Assembly (NCBI RefSeq): GCF_018977255.1
Contig: NW_024704742.1
Coordinates: forward strand, 26,724,001-26,788,000
Length of the DNA: 64,000 bases
Direction of reading: 5' to 3'
DNA from: Callorhinchus milii
Lineage: Eukaryota
The notes below the pieces were generated by a model. It was not told the origin of the DNA, ran no database searches, and saw only the letters and a program-made list of their open reading frames with translations. Shown here one piece after another: positions 4,848-28,234 of this stretch. Position numbers and translations under genes: made by a program. How positions within the stretch are numbered: the stretch's first letter is position 1; every line of letters starts with the position of its first letter.

Positions 4848-5186
4848 AGACCACATTTCGGAATAATATCTCTCAGTCGCCTGCAGAAATCGAGGCAGTT
4901 GAGGGTGATTCTGTGACCATGACATGCTCTTATAAGAGAGACCAGAAGTTTGAAAGCATCAGGGTGGAATGGACCAAAGAGTCACAACTAGTCCTGACGG
5001 GAACCAGTTCAAATCTGAGTTTGAAATCCACAGACAGATTCTCTCAAGTTATCCGGGAAACAGAAGCAATACTGACAATTAAAAACATCCATCTGAATGA
5101 TACGGGACTTTATCTGTGTAATGTTATTGTTGAGTTACCAATACTTCTTAAAGTCAATGGAAATGGAACAAAACTGACTGTGCAAG
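4848..5186 (+). CDS. TMIGD2-like: Gene A Ig V-set (germline VJ-type) exon of a CD28H/TMIGD2-/NKp30-like receptor
   Basis: Acceptor ttccttgacag|, donor CAAG|gtaagc, 339 nt, phase 1-1. Canonical V-set residues: VTMTC, W in IRVEWTK, LTIKNI, DTGLYLC, J-like [17 protein letters not shown] and VE(L/I)P resemble recalled TMIGD2 motifs (ERLRVKWTK, VEIP). Family assignment is by eye. Confidence 0.9.
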
Positions 5187-6071
5187 GTAAGCAGCCTCTT
5201 AAATTATAAAAGTGTATAATTTAGTATTTAAGATTACTCTTAATAATTCTTGCATTTGATATAGAGTGCTGTGACTGTTCTTTGTGGGCAAACCAAATTC
5301 AAAAACAGCCATGAAGTGAAAGACTACCTTTCGGCACCAAAGCAATGGACGGTTCATTCCTCACAGTTCCTGAGTTCCTGACTTCACTGTCTGACAGACA
5401 GAGACACTAGAGACCTGAGGGAGCCATGGGAGTTAATTCCAGGGAGAAAGTTCTCTCCACACTGCACCGCTCAGTAACCAGATCAGAATGGTCGTGATAG
5501 AGCCCTGAGAGAAGCACTCTGGTGGATGGCCTGGGAAACTGTAGGTCCCATGGAGGAAATAGTCATTGAATTTTATGCAACAACTTGCATTTATATAGTG
5601 CCCTTCACGAGAATAGCATCTTGGAGTACTTGATATAGATAAAGGGAGAGCCGATAAATAGCAGTTGCCTTTCGTATCCGAAGATGGCCATTCACCCAGT
5701 CTGAATACCGGGGTGTGGAAATTTGTTGATAGTGTAGAAGCTGCTGCCCACACAGCAATCAGACTATATAGCAAGTAGATAGCAAGCAGTGTAACCTGGT
5801 ATCAAGGAATATCCGAGGAAGACTGGACCACTTGTTAACTGCACTGGCAGACATCATTATCCGCGATCCACCAATCGACTGACAACCGGGTTCCTGCTTG
5901 CTGCTAAATAAACAGAGGCATGTGGTTCACTTGGAAGGAAACTTGCCCCACCCAGGAATCAAGCCCAGGTGCTCAAACTAAACTTTACTGCAGTTCACAG
6001 CTTCTATTGTGTATTTCCTGTCTCTGCCCTTTTCGCCTTAATCGGAAATTAATAAAAGGCCTTTCCTACAG

Positions 6072-6262
6072 CCCACAGACAGATTCGATCAAGCTGTGCG
6101 GAAAACAGAAGCAATACTGACGATTAAAAACATCCATCTCAATCATAAGGGAGTTTATCTGTGTAATGTTAATGTTGAGTTACCAATACTTTTTAAGAGC
6201 AATGGAAATTGAACAAAAACTGACTGTGCAACAAGTTAAACAGCCTTTCAAATTATAAAAGT
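6072..6262 (+). pseudogene. Degenerate copy of the 3' half of the V exon
   Basis: Translates [46 protein letters not shown] (TGA 6210-6212 replaces GGA). The donor GT is lost, and the downstream intron sequence aaattataaaagt is also copied. Confidence 0.9.
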
Positions 6263-6559: not shown

Positions 6560-6810
6560 TTGGGCAAGTTTCCTTACTCTACACGCCGGATAATAATCCC
6601 TCAAGAAAAAAAACAAAAATGAATTGGTCACTTCAATCCACGACTGTTTGTGGGACACTGCTGTGCGCAATTGGCTGCCGCGTTTCATCCACAAATATAC
6701 AGTCAATTCACTTTACAGTATATTCTGTGAAGCGCTTTGAGACGTCTAGAAGATGTAGAAAGCGCTACATCAAATGGAAAGATTATTATTCTTTATTATT
6801 ATTATTATTA
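6560..6810 (+). mobile_element. tRNA-SINE 3' part whose (att)n tail ends about 12 nt before the gene A TM acceptor
   Basis: SINE body from ttgggcaagtttcc to gattattatt...attatta. Confidence 0.85.
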
Positions 6811-6822
6811 ACCCTCTGCTAG

Positions 6823-6954
6823 ATTCTTCTAATTATGGAGTAGCCAGGTGGAGAACATTGAATTTGGGATTCATTTTGAGGATGCTTCTGTTTGTGATAT
6901 TCATCATTGCAAATTTCACTTGTTTCTTCCGATTCCGGAATCGATTTAGAAAAG
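6823..6954 (+). CDS. TMIGD2-like: Gene A stalk/transmembrane exon with intramembrane Arg (activating-type)
   Basis: Acceptor ctctgctag|, donor AAAG|gtaaat, 132 nt, phase 1-1, in frame with the V exon: DSSNYGVARWRTLNLGFILRMLLFVIFIIANFTCFF followed by basic stop-transfer RFRNRFRK. Confidence 0.8.
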
Positions 6955-7239
6955 GTAAATGGTTAATTAATTTTGATACATTATTCATATTTAAAATTAT
7001 TTTCAAATTGCTTTTGAGTGTCTCACTCATGACATTTGCATTTCTTTAAAACTATTTTGTAGTCTTTAATGTACATATCTCTACGTAAACCCACTGAGTT
7101 GTGACATTAAATGCCAACTTTAAGTGATCAATAGACTGAGTACGTTCTGACTGTAATGTTCTGCTATAAGCGTAGAGTTTAAAGCAATGTTAATATAGAA
7201 TTAGTTTAACCACAATTACAAAGGAAGAAGCAGGGCAGT

Positions 7240-10200
7240 CTGACCCCGGGCGACCACATCTGCAGAAGATGTCTGCAACTGAGGCAGCTCCAGCTCAGAG
7301 TGGCCAGAGTGGCCGAGCTGGAATTCGTGATACAGACTCTACAGAGTATCAGAGACAGTGAGTGCTTTCTGGATAGCTACATCCTGGAGCCAGTCATTCC
7401 CCTGAGGGAATATACGGTCAACATCATTGGTTATGATCAGGATAAGTCAATGGACAGTCAGGAGGTCAGGGGGACAATGGAAAGAGTGGTAGTAAATCCG
7501 GCATTAACTTTGAGCAATAGATATGAGATCCTTGGAACTTGTATCGACAAGGAAGCCGGTAAGGTGGAAGGAAAAACTACCTCTAATACTGGGGCAAATG
7601 AGAGGATGGTTGTTGTCATTGGGGATGAGACTATTAGGCAGACAGACACAATCATCTGCAACCCCAACCAGAAGACCCGAAGGCTTTGTTGCCTCCCTGG
7701 GGCTGGGGTGAAGGATGTCTCGGCAGGGCTAGAGGATAATTTAAAATACGAAGGCAAGGATCCGTTGGTGGTACTTCACATAGGTACCAATGACATCGGT
7801 AGAGTTGGCCAAGATGACTTGAGAAGGGAATTCAAAGAGCTGGGTTCCAAATTGAAGTCAAGATCATCGAAGGTGGTGATATCAGGACTACTGCCTGTAC
7901 CATATGACAATTGGTACAGGAACAAACGAATTAAGGACTTGAACGCGTAGCTAAAGAGAGGTGCGGAACTCAGGAGTTTCTTTTTATGGGCCATTGGCAC
8001 GAGTATTGGGGGAAAAGAAAGCTCTTTTAGAGAAATGGGCTGCATTTAAATCGGGCTGGGACAAATGTCCCAGTTAAACGAATTAACAGAGCGGTAACTA
8101 GGAATTTAAACTAGTAAAGGGGGGGGAATATATAAGTAATAGAAACCATAAGTTAGCATTGGAAAAAGTAAAGATGTCAGTGCAGAATAGCCTGCCAGAT
8201 AATAGGAATAGGTTAACTAGGGGTAAGAAGCTTGGCAACACAGATAAGGAATCAGAGACTAGAGGAAATGGTAGGAAATTAAAAATGTTATATCTGAATG
8301 CGCGAAGCATTCGGAATAAAACTGATGAATTAAAAGCGCAGATAGACACATGTGGGTACGATCTAGTAGCCATCACTGAAACATGGTTACAAGGAGATCT
8401 AGGGTGGGAGTTAAATATTCCAGGGTTCTCAGTTTACAGGAAAAATAGGCACTGTGGGAAACGAGGTGGGGGGTTGTCCTGTTAATTAGGGATGAAATAA
8501 AAGCAGTGGAGAGGAAGGATCTGAAATCCGATAACCAGGAGGTAGACAATATGGGTTGAAATAAAAAATAAGGGACAGAAAATATTAATGGGGGTGGTTT
8601 ATAGACCCCCATCAGTGATTACAATATAGCACAAGGTATTAATCAAGAAATCAGTGGAGCATGTAGGAAAGGTAAAGCGATAATAGTGGGTGATTTCAAT
8701 CTCCACATAGATTGGGAAAACCAAATCGGCAAAAGTAGATTAGAAGAAGAGTTCATTGAGTGTATGAGAGATAACTTTCTAGAGCAGCATGCCAAGGAAC
8801 CAACTAGGGGACAGGCCATCCTAGACCTTGTTTTGTGCAGTGTAGGTATTAAGACTCTTCAAGGCAGAGTGATCACAATCTGATTGAATTCTGCATTAAG
8901 TTAGAGAGGGATGTAGTTAAATCCGAGGCACGTATTCTGAATTTAAATTAGGCTAATTTTGTAGGTATGAGTAAAGATTTAGGTAAAATAGACTGGAGAA
9001 TCAGATTAAGAGGTAAAAATGTAGACCAACAGTGGCAAATATTTAAGGATGTAGTGCAAAATTCTCAGCGGTCGCATATTCCCTTGCGGAATAAGAGTAC
9101 CACAGGGAAAGCAATTCATCCGTGGCTAACTAGAGCAGTTAGGGAAAGCATCAAATTAAAAGAAAAAGCTTATAAAACTGCCAAGAAAAGCAGCAAATCT
9201 GAAGATTGGGAGAGTTTTAGAAACCAGCAAAAAAAACTAAAAAACTCATTAAGAGCGAGAAAAAGGAGTATGAGGGTAAGCTAGCTAGGAACATTAAGTC
9301 AGATTGTAAAAGTTTTTACAAATACATTAAGAGGAATAGGCTAGTGAGGGTAAATGTAGGTCCACTTCAGTCAGAGACGGGAGAAGTTGTAATGGGGGAT
9401 AAGGACATGGCAGAGTCCCTAAATGGGTACTTTGCATCTGTCTTCACCCTAGAAGACACAACAAGTCTGCCAACAATAGAGATGCACCAAGGGGATAAGG
9501 ACAGGGAGCAACTTAGGGAAATTTTCATTAGTAGAGAATTGGTGCTAGGGAAACTGTTAGCACTAAAAAGTGACAAATCCCCTGGTCCGGATGGCTTGCA
9601 TCCCAGGGTTTTAAAAGAGGTAGCTTATGAGATAGTGGAGGCCTTATGTCTGATCTTCCAAAATTCCTTGGATTCTGGAACAGTCTCCATGGATTGGAAG
9701 ATCGCAAATATCACACCACTATTTTAAAAAGGTGGAAAGGAAAAGATGGGGAACTATAGGCCATTTAGTCTCACATCAGTGACAGGAAAAATTTTAGAAT
9801 CGTTGATTAAGGATGTGGTAGTGCGGTAGTTAGGGGAACACAATATAATTAGGCCAAGTCAACATGGCTTTACAAAAGGGAAGTCATGTTTGACAAATCT
9901 CATAGAATTTTTTGAGGATATTTCGAGTAAACTAGATAAGGGTGAATCAGCGGATGTGGTCTATTTGGACTTCCAGAAGGCATTCGATAAGGTGCCACAT
10001 GAAAGGTTAGTCCAAAAGATAGGGGCCCACGGAATTAGGGGAATATATTAACGTGGATCGGGGAATGGTTAATGGGTAGGAAACAAAGAGTAGGGATAAA
10101 CAGGTCCTTTTCAGATCGGCGGGATGTGACCAGTGGAGTGCCACAAGGATCAGTCCTTGGGCCTCAGCTATTTACCATCTACATCAACGATCTAGATGAG

Positions 10201-11166
10201 GACATCGAAGTTAATATATCTAAATTCGCGGATGACACAAAACTAGGAGGAAGTGTCAACCCAGAGGACGACATTAAAAAAATGCAGCGCAACATAGATA
10301 GGTTAGGTGATTGGGCAGGTAGGTGGCAGATGAAGTATAATGTAGGGAAGTGCAAAGTCATCCACCTAGGTAGCAAAAACAGTAGAGTGGGTTATTTTTT
10401 AGAAGGGGAGAGATTGGAATGTGTTAGTGTCCAGAGGGACTTGGGTGTCCTTGTACACCAATCACAGAAAGTTAGTCTGCAGGTGCAGCAGCAATTAGGA
10501 AGGCTAATGGGATGTTAGCATTCATTATGAAAGGATTAGAGTATAAGAGTAGGGAAGTCTTGCTGCAACTGTATAGGGCCCTGGTGAGACCACACCTGGA
10601 ATACTGTGTGCAGTTTTGGTCTCCTTATTTAAGGAAGGATGTACTTGCCTTGGAGGGGTGCAGCGTAGATTTACTAGGTTAGTACCAGGGATGAAGGGGA
10701 TGAGTTACGAGGATAGGCTGACCAATTTGGGCCTATATTCTCTAGAATATAGAAGAATTAGAGGGGATCTTATAGAAACCTATAAGATCATCAAAGGGCA
10801 TGATAGAGTAGATAGTGGGAGATTGTTTCCCCTGGTTGGAGAAACTAAAACCAGGGGTCACAACCTTAAAATCAGAGGCAGCCCTTTCACACTGAGTTGA
10901 GGAAGAACTTCTTCACTCAAGGGGTGGTAAATGTATGGAACTCACTACCCCAAAGGGCTGTTGACGCTCAGTCCTTGAACATATTCAAGACTGAGATAAA
11001 TTTATTTCTTATTGCAAAAGGGATTAAGGGATATGGGGATAAGGCAGAGTTAGGTTATTAGCTGGAGTTAGATTAGAAGATCAGCCATGATTGAATGGGG
11101 GGCAGGCTCGAAGGGCCGAATGGCCTACTCCTGCTCCTACATGTTATGTTATGTTATGTTATGTTA
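7240..11166 (+). mobile_element. Near-full-length CR1 LINE (ORF1 SGNH-esterase-like; ORF2 APE endonuclease + RT), frameshifted
   Basis: ORF1 VVIGDETIR/CLPGA/LHIGTND. ORF2 [49 protein letters not shown]. 3' tail (atgtt)n at about 11140-11166. Confidence 0.95.
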
Positions 11167-11911: not shown

Positions 11912-12069
11912 TATGAAAATGAAGATACAATCTAGTGGTTGACCAATCAGATTTTGTAATTTAGCTTTTTCAATTAAAGAAGGAGCAGACTTGTGCTCTT
12001 AGTCTCATATAAGTTACAGCGTTTTGACATGTGAGGAAATCGCACATGATGCTAAGTATATTCCAAATC

Positions 12070-13808: not shown

Positions 13809-14131
13809 TAATAATAATAATAATAATCCTTGCATTTGATATGGCGCTTTTCACGTCGGGAGGACGTCCCAAAGCGCTTCACAGAACACACTGTAAAGTG
13901 AATTGACTGTATATTTGTGGGTGAACGCGGCAGCCAATTGCGCACAGCAATGTCCACAAACAGTCGTAGATTGAAAATGACCAATTTTTATTATTGTTTT
14001 TGGTTTTGGAGGGATTATTATTAGGCGTGTGGAGTAAGGAAACTTGCCCAAGGTTTCGCCCTGACCTGCCTGGAATTGAACTCGGGTCTCTCACTTGCAA
14101 AGCGAGTGGTCTAACCACTGAGCTACAGGAC
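13809..14131 (-). mobile_element. tRNA-derived SINE, young short variant
   Basis: Full head-to-tail match to the window's SINE family. Confidence 0.9.
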
Positions 14132-14859
14132 ATTTGGAGGTTTTTGAAGGCAGGGGGAAAGGAAGCAGGCTTTCTATTTCTGATCTGACTAAAATAGAAA
14201 TGGAGTTAATCTATTCTCATGTCCTAGGACACAATGAGCATCTGAACTGACAATTAGCAGCCGGTTTGTGTTTAAGCTGAATAGGGACGTTAATTAATGT
14301 AGGCCCTTTGCTTTGTTGTCCACCTTCAAATTCAGCACCCGTTCTAATATTTATATGGTCTTAAACTGACAGTTTCCGTTTTACAAATTGCATTATCTAT
14401 GGTGAAATTTACAGCTGATGAATCAATATTCCCAAATCACCAATGGCCACAAAGGGACCTGATAGCAAAATATTGGATGCTACATTCAGGAAGTTTTAAA
14501 CTGACACTGCAATTTGCAGGTTTAAGTTTAAATTTAAGTTTATACCAGAGGAGCACAAGAAAACATTCCCAATTCTCGAATTTTTTTTTCAGGTCTTTTT
14601 TTTCCACCATTTAATCAAGCGCTCTAAGACACTGCCCTGTGTGAGAACGGTTATATAAGTGCAAGCTGCTGTTGCTGTTGTAATCTATTCCACACAGTTT
14701 TCAACCTAGAGGTTTGATATTCCAATCAGCGTGACTGCTGTCGAGGCAACTGCTTGGAGATGTATCCAGTCCCTTGGGTGACTCGAATCAGCACCTCCAC
14801 AGATAATACAGCCAAGATGGGGAACTTCCTGTTTTGGGCAACTATAAGGAACCTTCTAC

Positions 14860-15182
14860 TGGAGTCCTGTGGCTCAGTGGTTAGAGCACTCGCTTTGCAA
14901 ATGAGAGACCTGAGTTCAATTCCAGGCAGGACGAAACTATGGGCAAGTTTCCTTACTCCACACGCCTAATAATAATCCCTCCAAAAAACAAAAAACAATA
15001 ATAAATTGGTCATTTTCAATCTACGACTGTTTGTGGGACATTGCTGTGCGCAATTGGCTGCTGCGTTCGCCCACAAATATACAGTCAATTCACTTTACAG
15101 TGTGTTCTGTGAAGCGCTTTGGGACGTCCTCCCGACGTGAAAAGCGCTATGTCAAATGCAAGGATTATTATTATTATTATTA
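14860..15182 (+). mobile_element. tRNA-derived SINE, young short variant
   Basis: A box tggctcagtgg, B box gttcaattcc, anticodon-like ttgca, (att)n tail. Confidence 0.9.
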
Positions 15183-16464
15183 CTGGTCTGTTAGTATATC
15201 CTCTGCTCTGCTGCCTTATACCTAATCCTTTGTTCACTCCAAATATTGAACATAAATCCTGTACAAAACTGTGTTGGTAATAGCCAGAATAAAACAATGG
15301 ATTCCCCATCCAAGCTACTGACTCTTGCTATTCACACAATGTAATTGCGATTGTTTTGCCCTCATCAGTGTTTCTGAGCAAAACGTGAATGAAGTAAATG
15401 AAAATGTGAAGAATTACTCTGAGGTTTTATTGAGTTTGTCTAATATTTACTAAAATGGCTCCTGAAAAGCAGGCCAATCATAAAAAAAAGTGTTCTCAAC
15501 AGAAAGCTTGTTTTGGTCAAAGAGTATTCACTTACATCTGTGCCCTTTACTTGATTCCAAAGCTGAATGACTGGAACTGGTTACCAGGAAAGCGTGATTG
15601 TGGCCAGGACGTCTGCGTATTTTAAAAAAAAGTTCATTGCTGCGGTGTGGGAGGATGGCAAGAGAGCAGATAAAATTGGTCATTCACTTTGTGGCTGTTT
15701 GTGGAAAATTGCTGTGCACAAATTAGTGTTTGCCTACACAACCACATGGTAACTGCAAGTTGCAGTAAAATCCTGGGAGGCACTTTGAATGTCTCAACAA
15801 CGTGCTAAGGTACTATATCAAATGCAAATACAAGGATTATTATCAGGTGCTTAGGATGTGGAAAACATCAGAGTCAAGCCTGATTCTGTTTACAACATCC
15901 CAAGAGAGGTTTGGATGAAGAAGGCCAAAGCTTGGCTCATTTATTTTCATCCTTCCTTTAACCTCACCCCACCATTCCCCCATTTAAAAAAAAACAGCCT
16001 CAAGTTTTTTTTTAAGGAATCCAGTGTCCTAACCACAATCACCCTTCATGGTAACCAGTTGTTAATTATCTCTGGGTAATTAATGTCCCCCTGATGTGAA
16101 AGGAGCTAAATAAATATAAATTGTATTGTACAATAAAGAAGTTTGCAATCCTAAACTGGTGCTGCCTCATTAACAGGCTGCTGGCGCTCAATTAACAATT
16201 AGGGCTGGAACTTCGAACAACCCTGATTGGAGTCCAGCCCTTCTTAGCGACATTGGTTGAGCCTTTTGTTTTTTAAAACAAATTTTAAAAAAACACTCCT
16301 TTACACGTAAGTAGAGTGTCTGTAATAATAATAATACTTGTATTTGATATAGAGCCATATCACGTCTTTGAGATGTTTCAAAGCATCTATATCCATAAAA
16401 AGTCACAGGGTTTATCCCGGCCTGTCACAGGAAGACAATTGATGAAATCCTACCACTTAGCACT

Positions 16465-18014: not shown

Positions 18015-18090
18015 ATGCAGTTGAATCCCTATTATTTAATGTTCATACTGATGCTCCATCACATACATCTTCTAATCCCAATTGCTGCAG
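18015..18090 (+). CDS. TMIGD2-like: Gene B exon 1: signal peptide [25 protein letters not shown]
   Basis: gccaacATG Kozak-like context, hydrophobic core ending in AA, phase-1 donor GCAG|gtaaaa 304 nt before the V exon. Confidence 0.8.
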
Positions 18091-21000
18091 GTAAAATACA
18101 AGCATTGTTTCTTCTGAAGTTATTTTGTCCAAAGTTGTACAGATGTTTATAGTGATAAGATATAATGAGGCTGTTAATTGAACCAAGGATATTGAAATGT
18201 AATCATTATTTCCCTTATGATCAAATTGAACTTTTTAAACATTGTTTGAGGTGAACCTTGAGTTTCTATTACATTAATAATTGTCATTCTTGTCTCTTCT
18301 TCCTGATATAGTTCAGTGTTTCTGTTTTTGTTTCTGAAGGGAAAGTGAGGCTGTATCTATTTACAATGATTGGGTTATTTCTTTTCCTTGACAGAGACCA
18401 CATTTCGGAATAATATCTCTCAGTCGCCTGCAGAAATCGAGGCAGTTGAGGGTGATTCTGTGACCATGACATGCTCTTATAAGAGAGACCAGAAGTTTGA
18501 AAGCATCAGGGTGGAATGGACCAAAGAGTCACAACTAGTCCTGACGGGAACCAGTTCAAATCTGAGTTTGAAATCCACAGACAGATTCTCCCAAGTTATC
18601 CGGGAATCAGGAGCAATACTGACAATTAAAAACATAAATCTGAATGATACGGGACTTTATCTGTGTAATGTTATTGTTGAGATACCAATACTTCTTAAAG
18701 TCAATGGAAATGGAACAAAACTGACTGTGCAAGGTAAGCAGCCTCTTAAATTATAAAAGTGTACAATTTAGTATTTAAGATTGCTCTTAATAATTCTTGC
18801 ATTTGATATAGAGTGCTGTAACTGTATTTTGTGGGTGAACCAATTTCAAAAACAGCCATGAAGTGAAAGATTAATTTTATTTTGGGGTTTGTTGGTCAGG
18901 ACTTCGGTAGAAACTCTCTTCTCTTTTTAAATTACGCCATGGAATCCTTGATATCCGCCTCAAAAGACAGTTGGGACTTTGGTTTACTATCTCATCGGAA
19001 GGATAATAGCTGATTGTTTGCCGGTGGGATACTTGTTCAGCCAGGCATTATAAAAAGGATGGCCTTTTTGAATGGCACGGTTTGGGGGGAACGTGATAAA
19101 GGTTGAAATAGAAATCACTTTTAAACAAAATGTCTCTTTCTAAATAATGACAAACTATTTGGGAATTTACAGTATAGTAGAGAATTCCAGCAATTTGCAA
19201 CAGTATGATTTTAAATTGTGATTTGTGCACAGTATCATGCAGTTTGAATTTACAGTATAATTCAATTTGTGGAATGAGTGATATGCTGGAAACCAAATGA
19301 CTATTTCATGTGCATGAATTGAAGCAACAAACTAAATTTGGCATTTCTTTTGGAGAATAATAAAATTAATCCTTGCCTTTAATATAGCGCCTTTCATGTC
19401 AGGAGAATATCCCAAAGCAAAGTGTAAAGTGACCGTGTAATTTGGTGGCTAACTCAGCCGCCAATTTGCACACAGCATTGTCTCACAAAGAGCCGCAAAG
19501 TGAATGACCAATTTTATTTGGGGGATTGACACCAAGACACCAGTTGAAACACCCTTCATTTTTCATATAGTGCCAAGGGAATTTTAACACTCACCTGAGT
19601 AAGTAATTGGAACCTCTGTTCCAACATCTCATTCAAAAAGCAAGACTTCTAATAATGCTCCACCAGTGGATCGGAGTGTCAGCCAATAGCAGGATTTTAA
19701 AGTCCCGACATGGGCCTAAACCCAAACTTTCTGACTCAGAGACAAAAGTACTATCAACTGAACGAGGCCCTCTAATTTTTCCCTCATTTTCCAATTGTCC
19801 TCAACCTCTTTGAGGCTCTGGCCTTTTGTAAGCAGAAGACCAGTCATTCATCTTATTCTCAGTCCCCTGTTCCTAGTCCCCGTTGTTGTTGTTTTCAAGT
19901 CATATTAAATATGAGAACTGTGAAGAGACTTTCCTTCCAGTTTGCTCTCCTTACCTGTGGGAGTTTTGAGGCTTCTATTTGTTACCTACTCATACTGTTA
20001 CGGCTACCATTAGTATTCCAGTGGTGTGGAGAAATCAAACATGTGGCCCATCACTCAGTGACATGACAGAGCTCTGAGGCAGGGTGCTCCTATCGTCTAC
20101 ATCTATTTTGTGTTATGGATAGATGTTCCCTGCTCCGTCTAAGGAACATCAAGCACATGTTTTTTTAATTGATGCAGAAAGACAGGAAATGAAGCTCTTT
20201 GAGTCATCCTCCTGACGTGAAAGATGCTATACTAAATGTTCCATTTTAGATAAATGTGACAAATGCCATCTTTTTTTGCTCGTGTTTTTTTCCCAAACTT
20301 TAAGATACATCTTAAAATGTATGCAATTGCACAGATACAATAGGCCAAGTACCCTCCTTCTGTGCTGAAATATAGTCAATCCACTTTACAATAGCGCTTT
20401 GAAATATCTCAACGACACGAAAAAGCTCTATATCAAATGCAAGGATTATCATTATTGTCTCCATGTGTGTGTCTGGGAGTACTTGAAGCCAATGAAGTCC
20501 TGTAGCTCAGTGGTTAGAGCACTCGGCTCGCAAGCGAGAGACCCGGGTTTGATTCCCGGCAGGGCAAAACCTTGGGCAAGTTTCCTTACTCGACACGCCT
20601 GACAATAATCCCTCAAGAAAAAAAACAATAATAAAATTGGTCACTTCAATCCATGACTGTTTGTGGAACACTCCTGTGTGCAATTGGCTGCTGTGTTTCG
20701 CCCACAAATTTACAGTTTATTCTGTGAAGTGCTTTGAGACATCTAGAAGACGTGAAAAGCACTATATCAAATGCAAGGATTATATTATTATATTATATTA
20801 TATTATTATAATTACAATTCAGTTATATGTCTGCGTGAGAAATTTGATTCCGACTCCACAAAACTTCTCTGAGTGAGCGCTAGGGGTGCAATTTTTGGGG
20901 ATCTGTCCTTCGGACAAGAAATTAAACTGAGGACCTCTATGCCTGTTCAGGTGGACGTTGAAGATTTCATGGCACTATTCAAAAAGATAAGAGTTTATAC

Positions 21001-24000
21001 TGGTGTCCGGGCCAACAATCCTCCAAATAAATTTTGCAGCATTTCTCCCAGCGCTGCTTTGGATTTATCAACCCGAGCTCAAAATCCTGATCTACCCACA
21101 GCATCCCGACTCAGAGGCGAGAATTGTACAAACTGAGCTATAGTAATGGGAAGGTGCTGGTCTGTGTATTATAATAATAATAATAATCATAATAATAGAA
21201 TCGTAAAATCGTAAAATCATAAAATCGTACAGCACAAAAAGAGGTCATTCTGCCCATCGAGTCTGTGCCGGCTCTTTGAATAGAGCAATGTAATGTCAAT
21301 CCCACTCCCCTGCCCTTTCCCCATAGCCCTGCAAACCCGTCCTCCTCAAATACCCGTCCACTGCGTTTTTGAAAGTAGTTATCGAATCAGCCTCCACCAC
21401 CCTTTCAGGCAATGCGTTCCAGATTCGAACAACTCACTGCGTGAAAACATTTCTTCTCACCTCCCCTCTGCTTCTTTTAGAAACTATTTTGAATCTGTGA
21501 CCTCGAGTTACCGACACACCCACCAGTGGGAACAGGTTTTCCCTTTCTAACCTATCAAATCCCCTCATGATTTTGAAGACCTCTATTAGGTCTCCTCGTA
21601 ACCTTCTCTGCTCCAATGAGAATAATCCCGGCCCCTCTAGCCTTTCCTCATAATCAAGGTCTCTAGCAAGTAGATAGCAAGCAGTGTAACCTGGTGTCAA
21701 GGAATATCTGAGAAGAGTGGACCACTTGCTAACCGCATTGCCAGACGCCATTACCCGCGATCCACCAATCGATTGACAAGTGCGTTTCCACTTACTGCTA
21801 AGCAAACAGAGCCATGTGGTTTACTTAGAAGGAAACGTGCCCCACTCAGGAATCGAACCCAGGTCCTCAAAGTTGCATTTGATATATTGCTTCATCCTGT
21901 CTGGTTAGTGCAGTTCATTGCAATTAACTGCAATTCAGAGCTTCTATTCTTGTGTATTTCCTGTCTCTGCCCTTTCCGCGTTACTTTATCAGAACTTAAT
22001 AAAAGGGCATTCTTACATGCCAAGCAAGGCAATATAAACTTAAACAAAGTAGGTAAAACCTTTTCCTCCAGTTCTACGTAACCCGAGAGAAGCACAGAAA
22101 TTGCATTCAAATAAACCGTTAACTGTTGATTACCTTTGCTTTCTCGGAAGTTAAACAGCGATTATATTACATTATTTTCACATATTTTTTAAATAATGTT
22201 TCTCATAGTCTGAAATAACATGGAATGATGGTGGCAATTTTAATTAATACTTGCATTTGATATAACGCTGTTCATGTCTGGAGGATATCTCAAAGCGCTT
22301 CACATCATTTACTGTAAAGTGTAGGTAAATGTGGCAGCCAATTTGAAGGTAAATGTGGCAGCCAATTTGCACACACCAATGCACCACAAACAGCCATGGA
22401 GTGAATGACCAATTTCTATCTGTAGGATTGTTGTCCGGGGCACTGGGAGAAACTTCCTTCCCTTTAAGAGAAGTGCCATGAGATCTTTAACATCCTCCTG
22501 AACAGGCAGACGGGATCTCAGTTTAATGTCTCATCCGAAGCACGGTATTTACAATAATTGCATTGGAGTGTCAGCATTTACGTTCAAAATCCCAATATGG
22601 GGCTTATTTAAATGCAATGTTTGTGCTTCTCTCGGGTTATGTAGAACTGGAGGAAAATGTTTTACCTACTTTGTTTAAATTTATGTGAGCCAGTCTTCTG
22701 GCTAAGAGGCGAGGGTGCTACAAACTGAGCCAGGCTGAAACCTAACTGCGTTGTAATTAGGAACAGTCTTGAATTGTAAATGTTACCTCTCTAGTGGAAT
22801 GCCTGGTTCTGACCCATTTCATTTTCATAATTGGAAGTAACTCTTGTGAGATGTGTTTAGGATTTATGGTACATATTTTTTTGTCTATCTGCCTAAATTT
22901 TCAATTGTATCCTTTGCTGTTGTGAACTACTATTCAGTAAAGAAATTGGTCCATTTAATTCCTCACGCTTCTGAGTCAGAATGTTGTGGATTCAAGCAGC
23001 TTGTGAAGTGCTCCTTTGTCAGAGGTGTCATCCTTTGGATGAGATGTTGAACTGATGTCCCGCCTACCTGTTCAGGTGGACGTTAAAGCTCCCATGACAC
23101 AATTCAAAAAGAGAAGGGGGTTTCTCCTAGTGTCCTGACCAACAATCCAACAGATAAAATTGATAATGTGGGATATTACTGTGCGCAAACAAGCTTCCGT
23201 GCTCACGTAAAAAACAAGTCACTATACCTTGCAAAAAATCCTGTGAAGAACTTGGAGGACTACAGTGACATGATAAGGCGCTATATCAAATGCAAGGGAT
23301 ATTATTAAACATTGTGTTTACTTTCCAGTAATGTCTAAGAATTTTCAACTTGCAATTTTTGTAAGAAAAATACAGTAGCACTAAAGCATATTTAATGAAT
23401 CTTTGGCTGTTTATGTTCTCTTAATGAAATATTTTTTATTTCTTTTCAATTTTCCATAGAACGCAAAGAAAAAAACTGGTCTTTAGTGGGATGTGTGGTT
23501 TTGGTGGTGGTGATACCAATCATCGCAGTTTTATACTATAAGAGAAGATGGAAAAAACATCCAGAAACACAAGGTGTGTAACTGAACAATATTTTCAAAC
23601 AAAAGATGTGTTCGATAGGACTTGGAGGGGCAGATCGGTCATTGGGGGCAGAGATTCTTTGCATTTCTTCATCTTAACTCTGGAAGCCCCAATGAGTAGG
23701 GTGATGCTAAATGGACAAGCAATCACTCTTGGGTGGCCAAATCTTGGCCAGCCTTCACCAGCCTGCACTTAGTACTCTTTGGAATTACGTTAGCAGGTTG
23801 TGTCCCTCCAGCAAGAGTGTGCAAGCACAGGGAAATATCCATACGTTAATGGAAAACATATGTGGAACTCTCAGTCTAATTTAGATACTCTTAAACGTGG
23901 TGACGGGTTCCACATGAATTTCAGACTGAATAACTACTGCAATTGCTGTACAAAGAGTTTCATTTACACACAGGTTTGTGTCACAGACATTTGCCCCAGC

Positions 24001-27000
24001 ACAAATCTGAGCCTTTAAATTTCGCCTCTCCCCGTTTGCACAAAAACAGGGGGAGGGGGATTTGTGGTATCAAAACAACTATCAACTCTGTATCAATAGC
24101 ACTTTAATGCTGTTCATTCCACAATCTTATGGCCCTTTGTGTAAAGATTTTTTTTTCTCTGGTCTTCCCTTTCACCAGCTTAGCTCTAGTTTTAATAAGT
24201 AGCAATTAACACACCATTTAATAGTATGAAGCACAGCTGCAGATGCTTGTTGAGTGCAAACTATGACCTCTGGAGAATTTGGGCCTGTCTACAAAACTGA
24301 GAGCCAGGAGCAGTCAGACTGATGATAATTCAGTGTGAAAATCTTGCATTTAAACCCATTGCTTTCTTTTCTTCTCTTTAAGTGGTGAGTGATGCTGTGA
24401 ACAAAATAAACTGTGAAGAAAACCGTGCGGAAGAAAGAAATCCGGAGAGCTTGTCTTCAAGAGGCTCATCTCAGTGGGTAAGTAACAGTGTTGTCTATTA
24501 ATAGCACAGTTCATCTCTGTGGAACCACTCTAAGTAGAGATGCAACACACCTACATCACATGACCATTAATAATAATAATAATCCTTGCATTTGATATAG
24601 CGCGTTTCACGTCGGGAGGACGTCCCAAAGCGCTTCACAGAATATACTGTAAAGTGAATTGACTGTATATTTGTGGGCGAACGCGGCAGCCAATTGCGCA
24701 CAGCAATGTCCCACAAACAGTCGTAGATTGTAAATGACCAATTTATTATTGTTTTTGGTTTTTTGGAGGGATTATTATTAGGCGTGTGGAGTAAGGAAAC
24801 TTGCCTAAGGTTTCGCCCTCTGCCTGGAATTGAACTCAGGTCTCTCGCTTGCAAAGCGAGTGCTCTAACCACTGAGCTACAGGACTCCATTGCACATTCA
24901 ATACGCATTGTTGGAAAAATAGTGTTGAATATGTTTTATCTGATGAGAAAACTGAAGTATTATAAACATGAGAAAAGGTCTTTCAGTGAGTTTGAACCAG
25001 TAATTCAATCTCAGGGTTCTTGTGAACTACAGGGTTTGGGGAAAGGACAGGTAAATGGGACTGAAAAGGGATTGCTCTTAAAAGAGCTGGCACAGACACG
25101 ATGGACCAAATGGCTCCTTCTTTGCTATAAAGGTCTTTGATTCTAAACATACATTCGGTGTTAGATCTTTGTTCTTGTGGTTTATAACCTCATAAGAATT
25201 ACACCAACAAAATTATATTTGTATAGCGCCTTTCACATCGGGAGGAAGTCCCAAGGTGCTGGACAGACAGAGTTACAGACCTGAGCTTAGGGTCTGGGTG
25301 GGGGAGGGCAGTGGGGGGAAACAGGGAGATCAAAAGCATGGTCAAAGAGGAGGGTCTTGAGGTGGGTCTTGAAGGTGGCGAGGGAGGAGGCGAGATGGAG
25401 GGACGACAGGATGGAGTTCCAGAGGGTGGGTGCAGAGTGGGGGAACGCCCGCCGCCAATAGTGGGCCGAGTAAGACGGGTGATGTGAAGCAGGCTGGAGC
25501 CCGCTGAGCGGAAGGAGCAAACAGGGTAGTACGGGGTTAAGAAGTCGGAGAGGTAGTGGGGAACAAGACCATGGAGGGCTTTGAAGGTGAGGACCAGGAT
25601 CTTGAACTGTATCCTCTGTGTGATGGGAAGCCAGTGGAGTTGGGCAAGGATGGGGATGATAGGATCGCGGAACCTAGTGCGGGAGAGGACACGGGGTGAA
25701 AAATTCTGGATGGTTTACAGCCTGTGGAGGAAGGAGTTAGGGAGGCCGACAAGCAGTGAGTTTGCAAAGTCGAGCCTCGATGTAAGGTGTATATGAGGGT
25801 TTCGGTGGCCTACGGTGTGAGACAGTGTCGGAGCCGGGCAACAGTAATTGCCGCTACCATAACTCATTTTTAACTAATTCTTATCAACGTGACATTTGAC
25901 AACATTTTACTCTGATACGATTGTCCTGTGATATTACAATGGAGTGGGAACTTTTTTTTGCACTGAGTAAAGTTTCAATCATGTACCTTGTGGGAGGGTC
26001 TTGATCTATTGCAAGTGTAAAATGAGTCAGTCTGTTGGGACACGCACATCCGTGTTCTAATACGCCTCCGTGTTGTCTCGGCATTCTTACACCATTTTCT
26101 TTACTCTTTACACCATTTTCACCATAAGACTGACAAGATTTATATTAGGGAGAGGTTATGCTGCCAGACTATAAATTACAGAGATTTGGATGGAGTAATG
26201 GTCTTCTGCTGTCTGATATTGTTACTGTCTGTTTGTATTCTTGCCACTATATCAATTTATCACAGATATCCACCACCTTTGGGAGGTCAATATTTTAATA
26301 TATATTTCTAAATTTTTCTCATTTTAACCTAACTAGGATCAATATTCCCTTGTGACGTTTACAACGTATTATTATTAGAGTTTTCTATTATCAGCACACA
26401 GTGGGGTCTAATTTGTGTGATTCGTGAAAGGATTTGAAAATATCTAATGCTGCTCGTTCCTGTCTGTGACTCGATGCTGATCCTCACCAGGAGTCCCGTT
26501 TGGCTACAGTCTGACTTTTGAGCAGAGTGGGTCAACATGAGACACATCTGGGTATCTACAGGATTCACTACTTACAAAGTATTGTACAATCCATTGGGCA
26601 AGACTACAAAGAGGAACTTTTTTTTATTGCAGTGACATGGATATAAAAATGTAATAACAGAATGTCTTTATCTGAGCCCTTTCTAAGCTTTAAACTTATT
26701 CTCACATTTTGTAGTGCTATTTATTATAAATGCACCCAGCTAATGCATTGAAAAGGCACCTCTCATGAGTAGCTGAGCTCTCTTCCTCAAAAGTGTGTAA
26801 AAAAACAGAATTGATTGGCCTGTTAGTGGACTCTAGGAGTCATGTTTGCAGCAAGCAGAATATCTTGTCCTGAGTGCCTTAGCTCCAATCTCAGAAGCTT
26901 ACTCTTTTATGTTCCAGTGTGATTTTTCCATTTCTCAAACAAATTATTCTTGTGGCTTTTCTAAGTGTGAGTGATACCTTAGTACCAATTAGTATAATTT

Positions 27001-28234
27001 TATAATAATAATGATACTCATAATACTTGCATTTGATATGGGTCAGTTCATGCAAAAAGTTTGGTTGTTAGGATCTGGGATGATGTGGCCCAAACTAAGA
27101 GCCAAATTTAAGCTATGAGAGAGGAAAATTTCATCTCATCACTGTTCTATGATAATAATAATAATAATAATCCTTGCATTTGATATAGCGCTTTTCACGT
27201 CGGGAGGACGTCCCAAAGCGCCTCACAGAACACACTGTAAAGTGAATTGACTGTATATTTGTGGGCGAACGCAGCAGCCAATTGCGCACAGCAATGTCCC
27301 ACAAACAGTCGTAGATTGAAAATGACCAATTTTTATTATTATTTTTGGAGGGATTATTATTAGGCGTGTGATGTGATTTTACAGAGTCATGTAAACATGC
27401 AAAAATTTACAGAATCTTTTTACATCAAGACTGTGTCCTAACACATTGCATCGTCCTGAGACCCTATGTTTAATGTACCTAAAACAATGAACAATGTAGA
27501 GTCCTGTAGCTCAGTGGTTAGAGCGCTCCCCTCACAAGCGAGCGATCTGGGTTTGATTCCCGGCAGGGCGAAACGTTGGGCAAGTTTCCTCAAACCACAC
27601 ACCTCTGTTTACCTAGCAGTAAGTAGGAATCCAATTGGTGGATTGCTTTTCTGGGGGTAATAATTCTTTCAAAAAAATAATAAATTGGTCACTCAATCCA
27701 CGACTGTTTGTGGGACACCGCCAGGTGGAATTGGCTGCCAAGTTTTGCCCACAAAATATACAGTCGATTCACTTTACAGTATATTCTGTGAAGTGCTTTG
27801 AGATGTCTCAAAGACGTGATAAGGGGCTACATCAAATGCAAGGATCATTATTATAATGCAAGATTTTCTACGTGTTACAAAAAGCATCATTGTCGTTTGC
27901 ACTGTGCAGGTCTCATGGAACATGATGCTAAACATATCAGCAGCATCAGTTTAGAAAAGACTCGATCTTCCAAAAGTTTGTAAACAACAAATCAATTTGG
28001 GTAAAATTCCCTTCCAGGGATGATGAGTGAAGCAAGTCCAGCCTAAGGTGCTTCATAATTGTAACCTAACTATTAAATTGGGAAAAGAATATTGTGCTTC
28101 TAACTTCATTATTATCACACTGAAGTCTATACAACTAACACGTAACATCCTGGATTTTTCAGATGGCCTCAACACTGTATGAATCCATTGATTATTTTGC
28201 TGTCAAGGAAGATGAAAACAAGGAATCTAATTGA
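18015..28234 (+). CDS. TMIGD2-like: Gene B: complete 5-exon, 231-aa type I receptor (leader, V, TM, two cytoplasmic exons) of CD28H/TMIGD2-like type with ITSM/ITIM-like tail
   Basis: join(18015..18090,18395..18733,23460..23573,24383..24477,28163..28234) = 696 nt open frame. All introns GT-AG, phases 1,1,1,0. Confidence 0.85.
18395..18733 (+). CDS. TMIGD2-like: Gene B exon 2: Ig V-set (VJ-type) domain
   Basis: 339 nt, phase 1-1. Differs from 4848-5186 at 6 nt / 4 aa. Four N-glycosylation sequons (NIS, NLS, NDT, NGT). Confidence 0.93.
20493..20815 (+). mobile_element. tRNA-derived SINE
   Basis: Head gtcctgtagctcagtggttagagc, shared body, AT-rich tail. Confidence 0.85.
21195..21665 (-). mobile_element. 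CR1 LINE 3' fragment
   Basis: Minus-strand [36 protein letters not shown]; 8-bp repeat tail aatcgtaa on + strand. Confidence 0.9.
22247..22740 (-). mobile_element. DeuSINE-like (SacSINE1-type) SINE interrupted by an inverted duplication
   Basis: Reverse complement of tcagcctggctcagtt..ggatgagacattaaac..cctgttcagg..catggcac; shared SINE tail. Confidence 0.7.
22960..23306 (+). mobile_element. DeuSINE-like SINE
   Basis: ctgagtcagaatgttgtgg..ggatgagatgttgaac..cctgttcaggtggacgttaaag..gtgtcctgacc; shared tail. Confidence 0.7.
23460..23573 (+). CDS. TMIGD2-like: Gene B exon 3: uncharged transmembrane segment
   Basis: Acceptor tttccatag|, donor CAAG|gtgtgt. [38 protein letters not shown]; 114 nt, phase 1-1. 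Confidence 0.88.
24383..24477 (+). CDS. TMIGD2-like: Gene B exon 4: cytoplasmic
   Basis: Long pyrimidine tract ..ctctttaag|, donor TGG|gtaagt. [32 protein letters not shown]; phase 1-0. Confidence 0.85.
24567..24888 (-). mobile_element. tRNA-derived SINE, young short variant, full length
   Basis: Full family match. Confidence 0.92.
25205..25845 (-). mobile_element. L2 LINE 3' fragment
   Basis: Minus-strand [29 protein letters not shown]; homologous to the 3' part of the L2 at 36140-38745. Confidence 0.85.
27152..27855. mobile_element. Two tRNA-SINEs in opposite orientation (27152-27370 -, 27497-27855 +)
   Basis: Family match of both copies. Confidence 0.85.
28163..28234 (+). CDS. TMIGD2-like: Gene B exon 5: terminal cytoplasmic exon [23 protein letters not shown]
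   Basis: Acceptor gatttttcag|, phase 0. Contains TxYxxI (TLYESI) and IxYxxV (IDYFAV); TGA at 28232-28234. Confidence 0.8.
   Translation: MASTLYESIDYFAVKEDENKESN

Follow-up and report, generated by a model that had tools for sequence, protein, structure and literature searches.

Gene B and its assignment to CD28HL1

The window analysed here, meaning the whole 64,000-nucleotide stretch at C1:26,724,001-26,788,000 of Callorhinchus milii (elephant shark), carries two intact V exons of nearly identical sequence that lie about 13 kb apart, the copy of gene A upstream of gene B, and that are followed by different exons encoding membrane segments (Table 1). The first-pass annotation of this DNA had described these V exons as 339 nt long and 6 nt and 4 aa apart, with one Arg in the hydrophobic stretch of gene A and an uncharged membrane segment followed by a tail of roughly 65 aa in gene B; BLASTN and site comparison reproduced the former, and the latter is read directly from the sequence, with a tail of ~64 aa.

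Table 1. Positions within the window of the exons, relics and repeats discussed in the text.
Feature	Positions	Strand	Evidence
Candidate leader (signal-peptide) exon of gene A	3483..3546	+	phase-1 leader scan, direct reading, X1 contig
psiV1, old degenerate V-exon relic with stop codons	4257..4451	+	tblastn of P0001: 30% over 69 aa, three stops
V_A, intact V exon of gene A, phase 1-1, ELP replacing the family EIP	4848..5186	+	BLASTN, Pfam, X1 contig record 4
psiV2, dead 3' half of a V exon, in-frame TGA, donor destroyed	6066..6231	+	BLASTN, tblastn
SINE copy, stopping 14 nt short of the Arg-bearing membrane exon's acceptor	6560..6809	.	self-BLAST, 84-87% to >10 other copies in the window
TM_A, candidate membrane exon of gene A, AG acceptor, GT donor, phase 1-1	6823..6954	+	sequence reading, TM-exon scan
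Decayed LINE (esterase-like, endonuclease and reverse-transcriptase pieces), directly 3' of TM_A	7210..11100	+	Pfam
Low-depth X1 contig cover between genes A and B	14115..16120	+	X1 records 6-8, poly(A) signal list
Leader exon of gene B (CD28HL1)	18015..18090	+	tblastn of P0001 residues 1-25, 100%; donor CAG/GTAAAA
V_B, V exon of gene B, GNGTKLTV	18395..18733	+	BLASTN, Pfam, P0001 match, contigs
TM_B, membrane exon of gene B, uncharged segment and stop-transfer	23460..23573	+	tblastn of P0001, TM-exon scan
Cytoplasmic exon of gene B, ending SSRGSSQW	24383..24477	+	tblastn of P0001
Last coding exon of gene B, family motif and stop codon	28163..28234	+	tblastn of P0001

The exon chain of gene B reproduces, residue for residue, a 231-aa database protein, P0001 (NP_001279065.1/AFK11429.1), and each exon of the proposed chain 18733-23460-24383-28163 finds its match in this protein, the last three encoding the uncharged membrane segment and the tail. 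Quiniou et al. 2024 (Front Immunol 15:1501934; PMC11599192) give NP_001279065, with the same CDR3 string, as the elephant-shark CD28HL1 (CD28H-like 1) in their Supplementary S4 and S3-C, and the 'Cami-NP_001279065-LOC103181322' rows of the latter match P0001. Gene B is elephant-shark CD28HL1 and is already in print, so that its first-pass placement in a CD28H-like family stands and can be narrowed. It is also expressed: among contigs of four sequencing runs, X1-X4, which are presumed to be RNA (none of the listed data sets that contain 4700-7000 is recorded as such), X2 record 15 and X4 record 32 cover V_B with no differences and both continue into other exons.

The sequence features that define the group are present in gene B, which shares with published CD28HL1 the CDR3-region motif YxC[E/K/Q/N]xxxEIP, of the general form YxC[polar]xxxEIP, the following GxG (here GNG) and a Y-E-S-[F/I] tail. 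The tail YESI, which follows SSRGSSQW, conforms to the Y[E/D]SF-type motif of CD28HL1, and the table of PMC11599192 gives the elephant-shark tyrosine motif as 'YKRR', the C-terminal YESI being missing there. The catshark orthologue P0163 likewise has YESI, other long-tailed shark forms have Y[E/Q]SF, and the C-terminal motif SSRGSxQW with YES[F/I]DYFA is present from sharks to birds. TLYESI and IDYFAV had been taken for a private ITSM and ITIM of this gene, a view that gives way to that of a family-wide motif, to which PMC11599192 assigns no role. IDYFAV does fit (I/V/L/S)xYxx(L/V/I) and TLYESI does fit TxYxx(V/I), the consensus patterns for the respective motifs, from which most CD28HL1 orthologues differ in having F at -2 and F at +3.

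The neighbourhood is consistent with this assignment at the level of domains: GH38 mannosidase exons lie ~22 kb upstream of the window (C1:26,700,365-26,702,661) and a RabGAP-TBC exon ~141 kb downstream (C1:26,929,229), and the published synteny markers of CD28HL1 are man2b, kiaa0232 and tbc1d14 (PMC11599192). CD28HL1 is the closest paralogue group of CD28H according to the same paper, and CD28H/TMIGD2 and gene B both have a single V domain, the EIP loop motif and GNG; whereas CD28H has a YxN[V/I/M/T] tail and fsd1/stap2 synteny, P0001 contains no YxN, and by its tail gene B would not be CD28H/TMIGD2 proper. CD28H itself is represented in the elephant shark by another gene, LOC103183582, whose CDR3 string is carried by P0147. 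An AlphaFold model (pLDDT 88) predicts a V-type beta sandwich. The matches listed from Foldseek on this model and from a PDB sequence search are TCR V domains (V-alpha), CTLA-4, PD-1 and the V domains of antibodies or nanobodies; such matches are generic and carry no discrimination within the family.

The V exon, leader and candidate membrane exon of gene A

BLASTN against the window aligned V_A and V_B at 98.23% identity over 339 nt (E 1e-169). The six differences, at positions 5044, 5060, 5064, 5089, 5090 and 5135, are synonymous in two cases and in the other four exchange T/S, E/G, H/N and L/I; both exons are open, in phase 1-1, and encode a V-set Ig domain (PF07686, E 1e-15). These are the only close V copies in the 991-Mb assembly, where the next V match is 39% identical. 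The similarity between the two loci forms a block of ~840 bp (4488-5326 against 18121-18873) that ends on both sides and in which identity falls to 84-85% in the upstream flank. Because this block begins ~30 nt past the leader exon of gene B, gene A needs a leader of its own. Beyond it, psiV2 is a partial third V copy, 88.7% identical to V_A at 6073-6231 by BLASTN against the window, with the A-type letter at 6 of the 6 sites at which A and B differ. The LINE starts 256 nt downstream of TM_A, shows matches to PF13472, PF14529 and PF00078 on the open reading frames 7210-7947, 8605-8880 and 10039-10515, and is represented by high-depth contigs in all four runs.

A candidate leader for gene A was predicted by a phase-1 scan before comparison with the read contigs. 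An ATG lies at 3483 and another, in frame, further upstream at 3447, and the candidate exon encodes a hydrophobic core and has a phase-1 donor (CA/GTAAGC); its coding part is single-copy in the genome and bears no similarity to the leader of gene B, and tblastn and a similarity search found nothing like the latter upstream of V_A. Record 2 of X1 (556 nt) aligns with 3021-3546 up to the very border of the GT donor, with 30 further letters unaligned, and this RNA-type contig of a single run shows transcription of the leader and correct splicing at its donor. The same run supplied record 4 (340 nt, depth 43), which spans exactly 4848-5186 plus one letter and shows an expressed, exon-bounded V with A-type letters. 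All RNA-type signal of gene A comes from X1; among the contigs listed, X2-X4 have no cover at 3312-3480 or 5044-5064, gaps to which no weight attaches. The contig joints listed include none at 3546 to 4848, 5186 to 6823 or onward from 6954, and a collection of 5.8 billion sequences contains no protein in which V_A is joined to TM_A, so that the 5186-6823 junction of the first-pass annotation finds no counterpart among these joints and proteins. Further downstream, the X1 cover between the genes stops 6 nt past an AATAAA at 16109-16114 and may represent the 3' end of gene A.

Gene A is without sound annotation. The only database model that contains V_A, P0003 (UniProt A0A4W3GES5), uses other, implausible exons: it joins 5186 to 5803, an acceptor with a poor pyrimidine tract, and meets a stop 10 codons later. 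Its first exon is not a signal peptide, its V domain is cut and its last exon is short and out of family, the first two of which make it a weak model. No exon of gene A carries the Y[E/D]SF-type motif of CD28HL1.

The candidate membrane exon TM_A encodes a hydrophobic stretch of ~24 aa that includes GFILRMLLFVIFII, with one Arg in its N-terminal third, followed by basic RFRNRFRK. Its phase and its AG and GT borders are those that the V exon requires, and it is single-copy, a search of the animal's own genome returning no second copy. Self-BLAST of the window and tblastn detected no similarity between the membrane exons of A and B (6823-6954 and 23460-23573), in agreement with their earlier description as non-homologous. 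When both strands of the window (128 kb) were scanned for segments resembling membrane exons, four loci passed: TM_A, TM_B and two SINE-derived segments. For the phase-1 end of TM_A there is no convincing following exon, the phase-1 acceptors in the X1-covered stretches giving short unsupported peptides. No homology of TM_A emerged from the own-genome search or from three further approaches: nine charged-TM tails, used as tblastn queries on the window, matched TM_A with a non-significant E of 0.49 at best, Smith-Waterman scores against 1000 shuffles reached z 6.0 (P0116) and 4.7 (P0130) with uncharged controls up to 4.5, and an HMM of six bony-fish Arg anchors scored TM_A at -2.3, outside the top matches, among 1652 open reading frames of the window. 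TM_A resembles the bony-fish Arg anchors no more closely than some uncharged controls do. The great white Lys-bearing tail also matched 3681-3794 (E 0.039, without composition statistics), a possible relic that we put down to chance.

Exchange between V_A and V_B, and charged-anchor forms in other fishes

The difference between the V exons (6/339 nt, 1.8%) is significantly smaller than that between their near flanks (17/228, 7.5%; Fisher p = 0.0017), the far upstream flank diverging by 15-16% and psiV2 having drifted by ~11-13%. Since psiV2 shares all of the A-type letters, these letters are old. Record 4 of X1 carries the letters of gene B at 5044, 5060 and 5064 and those of gene A at 5089, 5090 and 5135, and the switch falls between 5064 and 5089, a distance of 25 nt that is below the 31-letter words of the run index. 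If the contigs were built with words of equal length, as we assume, this distance makes the recombinant A/B V a real molecule, and on that assumption sequence exchange between A and B, that is gene conversion, is shown. Record 4 may instead represent an allelic form of gene B. As far as the sequence can tell, the two genes present the combination by which paired receptors are recognised, namely linked genes with near-identical ectodomains matched by conversion.

Forms resembling the proposed gene A occur in other fishes. Great white shark XP_041040922 (P0017; isoforms P0151 and P0152) and sawshark P0018 combine a CD28HL1-type V with a membrane segment containing a single basic residue and a tail of ~15 aa directly after it, the design proposed for gene A. 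Their basic residue is Lys (AALKI, QN.PAE.K) in contrast to the Arg of TM_A, their leader is common with the long form whereas that of gene A is private, and their membrane segments and tails show no significant similarity to TM_A, the shuffle p values of 0.02 and 0.12 falling inside the spread of the controls. Their V domains are nearly identical to that of the long-tailed gene in the respective species, at 89% in great white, and the V of P0017 groups with its long-tailed counterpart in that shark and apart from the basking shark orthologue (support 99/94). Six bony-fish proteins likewise carry a CD28HL1-type V on LRSLPF-type Arg anchors with short tails, and stickleback and sterlet sequences in the alignment of PMC11599192 also have LRSLPF-type Arg anchors. 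The same architecture recurs across two orders of sharks and among bony fishes, which makes the earlier proposal that the system evolved independently in this cartilaginous fish doubtful. In comparison with the present locus, PMC11599192 has one elephant-shark gene, NP_001279065 only, with gene A absent, and its main text does not use the words 'charged', 'lysine', 'arginine', 'activating', 'paired' or 'pseudogene'. The pairing of CD28HL1 with a charged-anchor twin, here and in other fishes, seems to be undescribed, and a partner gene with a charged membrane segment is plausible for the elephant shark on these sequence grounds.

A putative activating-type partner of CD28HL1

Our preferred reading, which is plausible and to which we give a probability of about one half, is that gene A is an activating-type partner of CD28HL1. 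Gene B would be a type I membrane co-receptor with a single V domain that signals through its conserved C-terminal tyrosine motif, YES[F/I]DYFA. Gene A would be a mosaic of an unrelated leader of its own, a matched V exon, two V relics and a private Arg-anchor exon with a short basic tail, in which the near-identity of V_A to V_B may be kept by inter-locus gene conversion, by purifying selection or by both. Its product would most likely be a surface receptor that sees the ligand of CD28HL1 and, in place of a tyrosine tail, would use its membrane Arg to engage an ITAM adaptor with an Asp, of the CD3-zeta/FcR-gamma or DAP12 kind. We infer four of these steps, namely the junction of V_A to TM_A, the last exon of gene A, the coupling to an adaptor and the sign of the gene B signal. 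An adaptor of the required kind appears to be available, as the genome contains one zeta-family exon (PF11628, TCR zeta-zeta TM) at C4:11,453,717-11,453,800 with 60 bits.

The likeness to NKp30 (NCR3), which has one V-type domain and a membrane Arg that couples to CD3-zeta/FcR-gamma, applies to gene A only and as a functional analogy. To this extent the first-pass description of the receptors as NKp30-like can be kept; NKp30 chains are absent from the 60 PDB sequence matches and the ~45 Foldseek rows listed, which are dominated by antibodies and TCRs. The classical paired receptors (KIR, LILR/PIR, PILR, Siglec-5/14 and CEACAM1/3) are encoded by neighbouring genes with near-identical ectodomains, kept so by conversion, and differing membrane and tail modules. 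Genes A and B share with them the neighbouring position, the near-identical ectodomain and the different anchor modules, and differ in lineage, the Ig-like ectodomains of the classical systems being of lineages other than the CD28 family. We know of no CD28-family member described as a paired receptor, and the papers found on CD28H together with paired receptors concern, by their titles, other systems.

A competing account, clearly less probable but a serious one, holds that gene A is a transcribed, non-functional remnant, with a V exon recently copied or converted into a decaying locus and an Arg-bearing membrane segment that is an unspliced chance frame. The locus is indeed full of dead V pieces (psiV1 and psiV2) and of SINE and LINE sequence, TM_A is used by no annotated protein, has no homologue and leads to no terminal exon that we could find, and the Ensembl-type model P0003 ends in its short exon outside the family. 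The scan of the window returned 179 open frames of at least 75 aa, which makes open frames as such common here. Pfam, run on 126 of the 179 (overlapping and repeat-tail frames and the two V exons being omitted), matched 8 of the 126: seven contain domains of transposable-element type (RVT_1, Exo_endo_phos_2, GDSL-like), and the eighth has a weak Homer-binding match below cut-off. However, V_A is intact over 113 codons and 4-fold less divergent than its near flanks, the private leader is phase-compatible and its canonical donor is in use in the X1 contig, and sister species retain working genes of the same design. The membrane-exon filter also speaks against a chance frame: only two non-genic segments per 128 kb pass it, both SINE tails, which puts the chance of such an exon arising by accident in the correct orientation and no more than 1.7 kb from V_A at ~0.03, a rough figure for a filter set post hoc.

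It is rather unlikely that V_A is instead an alternative V exon, read from the A leader through V_A into the membrane segment and tail of gene B, or part of a secreted or decoy form. Such a fork would fit the end of the X1 V contig one letter past the exon if the branches shared their first letter, and TM_A and TM_B both begin with A, as the intron and the 5803 exon both begin with G; P0003, with its early stop after 5803, would be a form of the secreted kind. Against this arrangement, a poly(A) signal lies between gene A and the leader of gene B, as does the point at ~16120 where X1 cover ends, splicing would need to remove 18 kb of DNA rich in LINEs and SINEs, and the 5803 exon depends on that poor acceptor and on a weak model. 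An assembly or haplotype artefact as the source of the V duplication, which the exon identity of 98.2% might suggest, can be dismissed: the similarity is confined to ~840 bp, decays upstream and then stops, the flanks differ in their exons and repeats, letters of both the A type and the B type appear in independent runs, and psiV2 attests the age of the A-type letters.

If gene A is the activating-type partner that we favour, its significance lies first in the CD28 family itself. CD28, CTLA-4, ICOS, PD-1 and CD28H are co-receptors that signal through their own tails, so that a twin coupled to an adaptor through a charged membrane segment would be new for this family and would bear on the relation of NKp30-type receptors to it. 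A binding domain kept matched between twins is the mark of paired receptors, whose evolution is driven by conflict over a ligand. A broader and more tentative proposal, which we consider possible rather than probable, is that of an old paired system of jawed fishes in which CD28HL1 is shadowed by an Arg- or Lys-anchored twin whose V is re-matched by repeated conversion; possible cases are genes A and B of the elephant shark, XP_041040922 with XP_041051211 in the great white shark, and a stickleback pair tabulated in PMC11599192. Were this proposal true, the CD28 family would join the NKp30, KIR and LILR-type families as a source of activating/inhibitory pairs, and an arms race over a B7-like or pathogen ligand would be suggested. 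CD28HL1 has been lost in eutherian mammals, and the practical yield is modest pending a transcript of gene A. Genes A and B would offer two natural variants of one binding domain, four residues apart and followed by different signalling modules, as a handle on the function of CD28HL1.

A candidate twin of CD28HL1 and the identity of gene B

Gene A is probably a transcribed, unannotated upstream twin of gene B, the latter being CD28HL1. The reading that we favor, at a probability of about 0.5, is that this twin is live and adaptor-coupled: its ligand specificity would match or nearly match that of CD28HL1, it would lack a tyrosine tail, and it would signal through its membrane arginine to an aspartate-bearing ITAM adaptor. 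The window is AT-rich vertebrate DNA containing no N, and a BLASTN search of it with the gene A V exon (V_A, 4848-5186) recovered the gene B V exon (V_B) at 333 of 339 bases together with a third, partial copy at 6073-6231. The six differences comprise two synonymous changes and the replacements T/S, E/G, H/N and L/I, exactly as the first-pass annotation had described for two 339-nt exons six nucleotides and four residues apart. Both exons are open, keep phase 1-1 and encode V-set Ig domains (Pfam PF07686, E about 1e-15), and they are the sole close copies in the 991-Mb assembly, the next best V exon being 39% identical.

The V_B translation is 100% identical to a 231-aa Callorhinchus milii protein, P0001 (NP_001279065.1 / AFK11429.1, 'uncharacterized LOC103181322 precursor'), which aligns to the window exon by exon in tblastn and thus bears out every exon of the gene B model first proposed from the sequence. 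Contigs from two runs of two studies (X2 record 15, 1029 nt; X4 record 32, 1553 nt) carry V_B without difference and continue past it outside the aligned stretch, as expected of mRNA. Gene B is already published as CD28HL1 in Quiniou et al. 2024 (Front Immunol 15:1501934; PMC11599192), where this family is recognized by the loop motif YxC[polar]xxxEIP, a 'highly conserved Y[E/D]SF' tail motif and synteny with man2b, kiaa0232 and tbc1d14, and where NP_001279065, carrying gene B's loop string, is given as elephant-shark CD28HL1 (S4/S3). Consistent with this synteny, at the domain level only, GH38 mannosidase exons lie about 22 kb before the start of the window and a RabGAP-TBC exon about 141 kb past its end. 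Table S4 of that source lists a juxtamembrane 'YKRR' as the tyrosine motif of elephant-shark CD28HL1, although the protein ends with the family YESI-DYF motif.

Exhaustive HMMER searching with P0001 as query yielded 616 representatives at E<=0.001, of which 150 were listed, and a word-indexed search with the great white shark protein P0017 added nine further shark sequences. Among the matches listed, long-tailed proteins end in …SS.GS.QW…(L/V/I)YES(F/I/V/L/C)DYF(A/E)…, a motif spread over sharks, bichir, gar, teleosts, frogs, crocodilians and birds. Because the same C-terminus recurs from sharks to birds, TLYESI and IDYFAV form the conserved end of the family rather than a novelty of the elephant shark. 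Both tail tyrosines of elephant-shark gene B happen to fit the ITSM and ITIM consensus; most shark orthologues have an F at the end of the first motif and an F at position -2 of the second. According to the authors of PMC11599192 the signal of the tail motif is unknown, so we only infer, at near even odds, that gene B inhibits.

Features of the two genes and repeats, in window coordinates
Feature	Position	Description
Gene A candidate leader	3483-3546	donor CA/GTAAGC, in frame with V_A
psiV1	4257-4451	dead V piece, about 30% protein identity, stops
psiV2	6066-6231	dead 3' half of V exon, TGA, ruined donor
Gene A candidate TM exon (TM_A)	6823-6954	AG acceptor, GT donor, phase 1-1 kept
Gene B leader	18015-18090	tblastn of P0001
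Gene B V exon (V_B)	18395-18733	tblastn of P0001
Gene B TM exon (TM_B)	23460-23573	tblastn of P0001
Gene B cytoplasmic exon	24383-24477	tblastn of P0001
Gene B last coding exon	28163-28234	tblastn of P0001
SINE-like family	2683-2965, 13812-14097, 14898-15179, 24567-24851	young, 280-320 bp
SINE-like family, further copies	27156-27365, 30053-30336, 41688-41902, 44861-45138	
SINE-like family, further copies	51868-52150, 59113-59393, 59532-59814	
LINE pair	32598-34425, 36142-37935	inverted; reverse transcriptase and endonuclease ORFs, 76% identical

Gene A: probable transcription, candidate exons and probable sequence exchange with gene B

No sequence like the leader of gene B occurs upstream of V_A within the window. 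The candidate leader came out of a search for hydrophobic phase-1 exons that open with ATG, before any contig was aligned, and contigs of four runs (X1-X4, presumed to be of RNA) were afterwards aligned to window positions 1-20000. X1 record 2 (556 nt, depth 6.7) fits 3021-3546 and its fit ends exactly at 3546, leaving 30 letters unaligned, one fewer than the 31-letter index word; under the strand convention as we read it, this overhang lies on the 3546 side. If the contigs were built with words of 31 letters, a 30-letter overhang indicates a word-graph contig entering sequence common with another transcript. At the other end, 3021, no AG precedes the fit. X1 record 4 (340 nt, depth 43) covers exactly 4848-5186 plus one letter and is thus bounded on either side by a V exon border, as is expected of spliced RNA. 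Together, the end of record 2 at the donor and the exon-bounded record 4 provide fair evidence that the candidate leader is spliced, and they make V_A its likeliest target, a junction that we consider probable. Just upstream of the leader, 3380-3422 is the edge of a repeat present at no fewer than nine other genomic places, so a transposon origin is possible for the promoter or 5' UTR of gene A.

TM_A encodes about 24 hydrophobic residues with one arginine in the first third, followed by RFRNRFRK, and is single-copy in the genome; TM-exon-like segments on both strands came to four loci, namely TM_A, TM_B and two SINE tails. The arginine-bearing exon of the first-pass annotation is an open, single-copy candidate with the right phases; none of the joints listed for X1-X4 links 5186 to 6823. 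The single extra letter on the V contig would be explained by a fork between TM_A and TM_B, both beginning with A, and equally well by one between the intron and an exon at 5803, both beginning with G; it therefore does not decide between them. Use of TM_A in mRNA stands at roughly an even chance. X1 contigs also cover 14115-14570 and 15191-16120, ending beside an AATAAA at 16109; as a conjecture, they may mark the gene A 3' end.

The leading alternative, a transcribed dead copy, is in our estimate less likely than a live twin. Weighing against TM_A as an exon, no credible exon was found after it, although it ends in phase 1, and no protein with V_A and the TM_A exon appeared in the database search. 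Of the models found, V_A occurs in P0003 alone, which begins with a non-signal exon, has its V domain cut and ends in 11 odd residues. Against a dead copy, V_A is open and its candidate leader has the contig evidence for splicing. An alternative or soluble V form is less probable still.

The intact V_A is flanked by two V-exon relics, psiV1 and psiV2. The latter is about 11-13% diverged from V_A, yet it has the A-type letter at 6/6 sites at which A and B differ, one of which changes the family-wide EIP to ELP. This retention in a drifted relic marks the A-type letters as long-standing in the A lineage, the remaining exon having stayed, or been made, B-like, and the sharing of all six letters points to repeated V-exon duplication or replacement at locus A. 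Similarity between the loci is limited to 4488-5326 versus 18121-18873 and begins about 30 nt past the gene B leader donor; there are 6 differences in the 339 nt of the V exon as against 17 in 228 nt of adjoining intron (Fisher p = 0.0017), and the flank further upstream is 15-16% different. Since a neutral V_A would diverge like its flanks, its likeness to V_B argues, on sequence comparison, for selection and/or repeated gene conversion, both of which are usual in paired receptors.

X1 record 4 has the B letter at 5044, 5060 and 5064 and the A letter at 5089, 5090 and 5135. Because 5064 and 5089 are only 25 nt apart, single words of 31 letters, the length used in the run index and assumed for the contigs, cover both, and on that assumption the mosaic molecule is real. 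Two origins would account for it, conversion of an A allele by B across 21 nt or more and conversion of a B allele by A; with either, loci A and B exchange sequence, and record 4 is a recombinant, expressed V haplotype implying ongoing A/B gene conversion in the population. Near-identical though they are, two V copies set in flanks this different are hardly credible as an artefact.

Charged-anchor relatives in other fishes and the proposed signalling of the pair

Among the matches listed with P0001, a CD28HL1-type V sits on a different anchor in at least two sharks. The charged-anchor form of the great white shark (XP_041040922, P0017, 190 aa; its other isoforms are P0151 and P0152, and NCBI names them all 'CTLA-4-like') and the second such shark protein, Japanese sawshark P0018, both carry a lysine within the TM segment, followed by a short tail (about 15 residues) that closes with QN.PAE.K; the anchors are clearly alike by eye, and the species belong to different orders. 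These proteins represent a charged-anchor partner gene common to two shark orders. Between the V domain of P0017 and that of P0002, the long-tailed gene of the same species, identity is 89%. A V-domain tree was built from 23 rows: the two window exons, 10 chondrichthyan sequences (all full-length CD28HL1-type matches listed, the partial P0169 and P0170 left out), 6 long-tailed bony-fish or tetrapod sequences, 4 CD28H and 1 CD28HL2. In it P0017 groups with P0002, with the basking shark orthologue outside (99/94); V_A and V_B pair in the same way (99/100).

At least six bony-fish proteins, from a tilapia relative, a wrasse, zebrafish, a sturgeon, a characiform and a clingfish, bear an EIP/DIP-type V on arginine anchors that follow the pattern …(Y/F)x(L/F/I)R(S/C)(L/I)(P/V)(F/L/I)…. 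In the supplement of PMC11599192 such anchors occur in the S3-C alignment (stickleback XP_040035616, sterlet XP_058863796), and S4 holds a stickleback pair with loop strings one residue apart, in which one member is given 'YVLR' and the other 'YESF' as tyrosine motif. The S4 entries 'YVLR' (stickleback) and 'YLTR' (sterlet) are part of, or beside, arginine-bearing TM segments and not signalling motifs. The main text of PMC11599192 lacks the words 'charged', 'lysine', 'arginine', 'activating', 'paired' and 'pseudogene', and no description of the charged-anchor CD28HL1 design was found in the literature searched, which lay outside subscription journals.

Gene A fits this charged-anchor design, which recurs in CD28HL1-type proteins across fishes. 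Profile, shuffle and tblastn tests of homology between TM_A and the fish anchors were negative or no better than controls; gene A would accordingly work like the charged-anchor partners, the claim that it is the same gene being unsupported, and its resemblance to their anchors (…FILRxLxF…) may reflect common function rather than descent. The genome contains one zeta-family TM exon. Adaptor coupling of gene A is a tentative proposal, somewhat short of even odds, and truly opposite signals in A and B are doubtful. The observation first made is thus confirmed, and the paired-receptor interpretation offered with it is supported in part: the twin with a charged-anchor design survives as a candidate, its partner is the known CD28HL1, and the partner's tail motif is a family trait.

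Repeats in and around the two genes

The SINE-like family has at least 11 copies at 93-97% identity, with several older ones, and dominates depth in all four runs. One SINE ends 14 nt before the TM_A acceptor, and a LINE begins 256 nt past the TM_A donor. The inverted LINE pair forms a G+C-rich, strongly skewed block at 32-38 kb. In the LINE 3' of TM_A, an ORF at 7210-7947 weakly resembles GDSL lipases/esterases, with an E of 5.6e-5 that does not reach Pfam's cut-off; some LINE ORF1s bear an esterase domain, and this ORF is similar.
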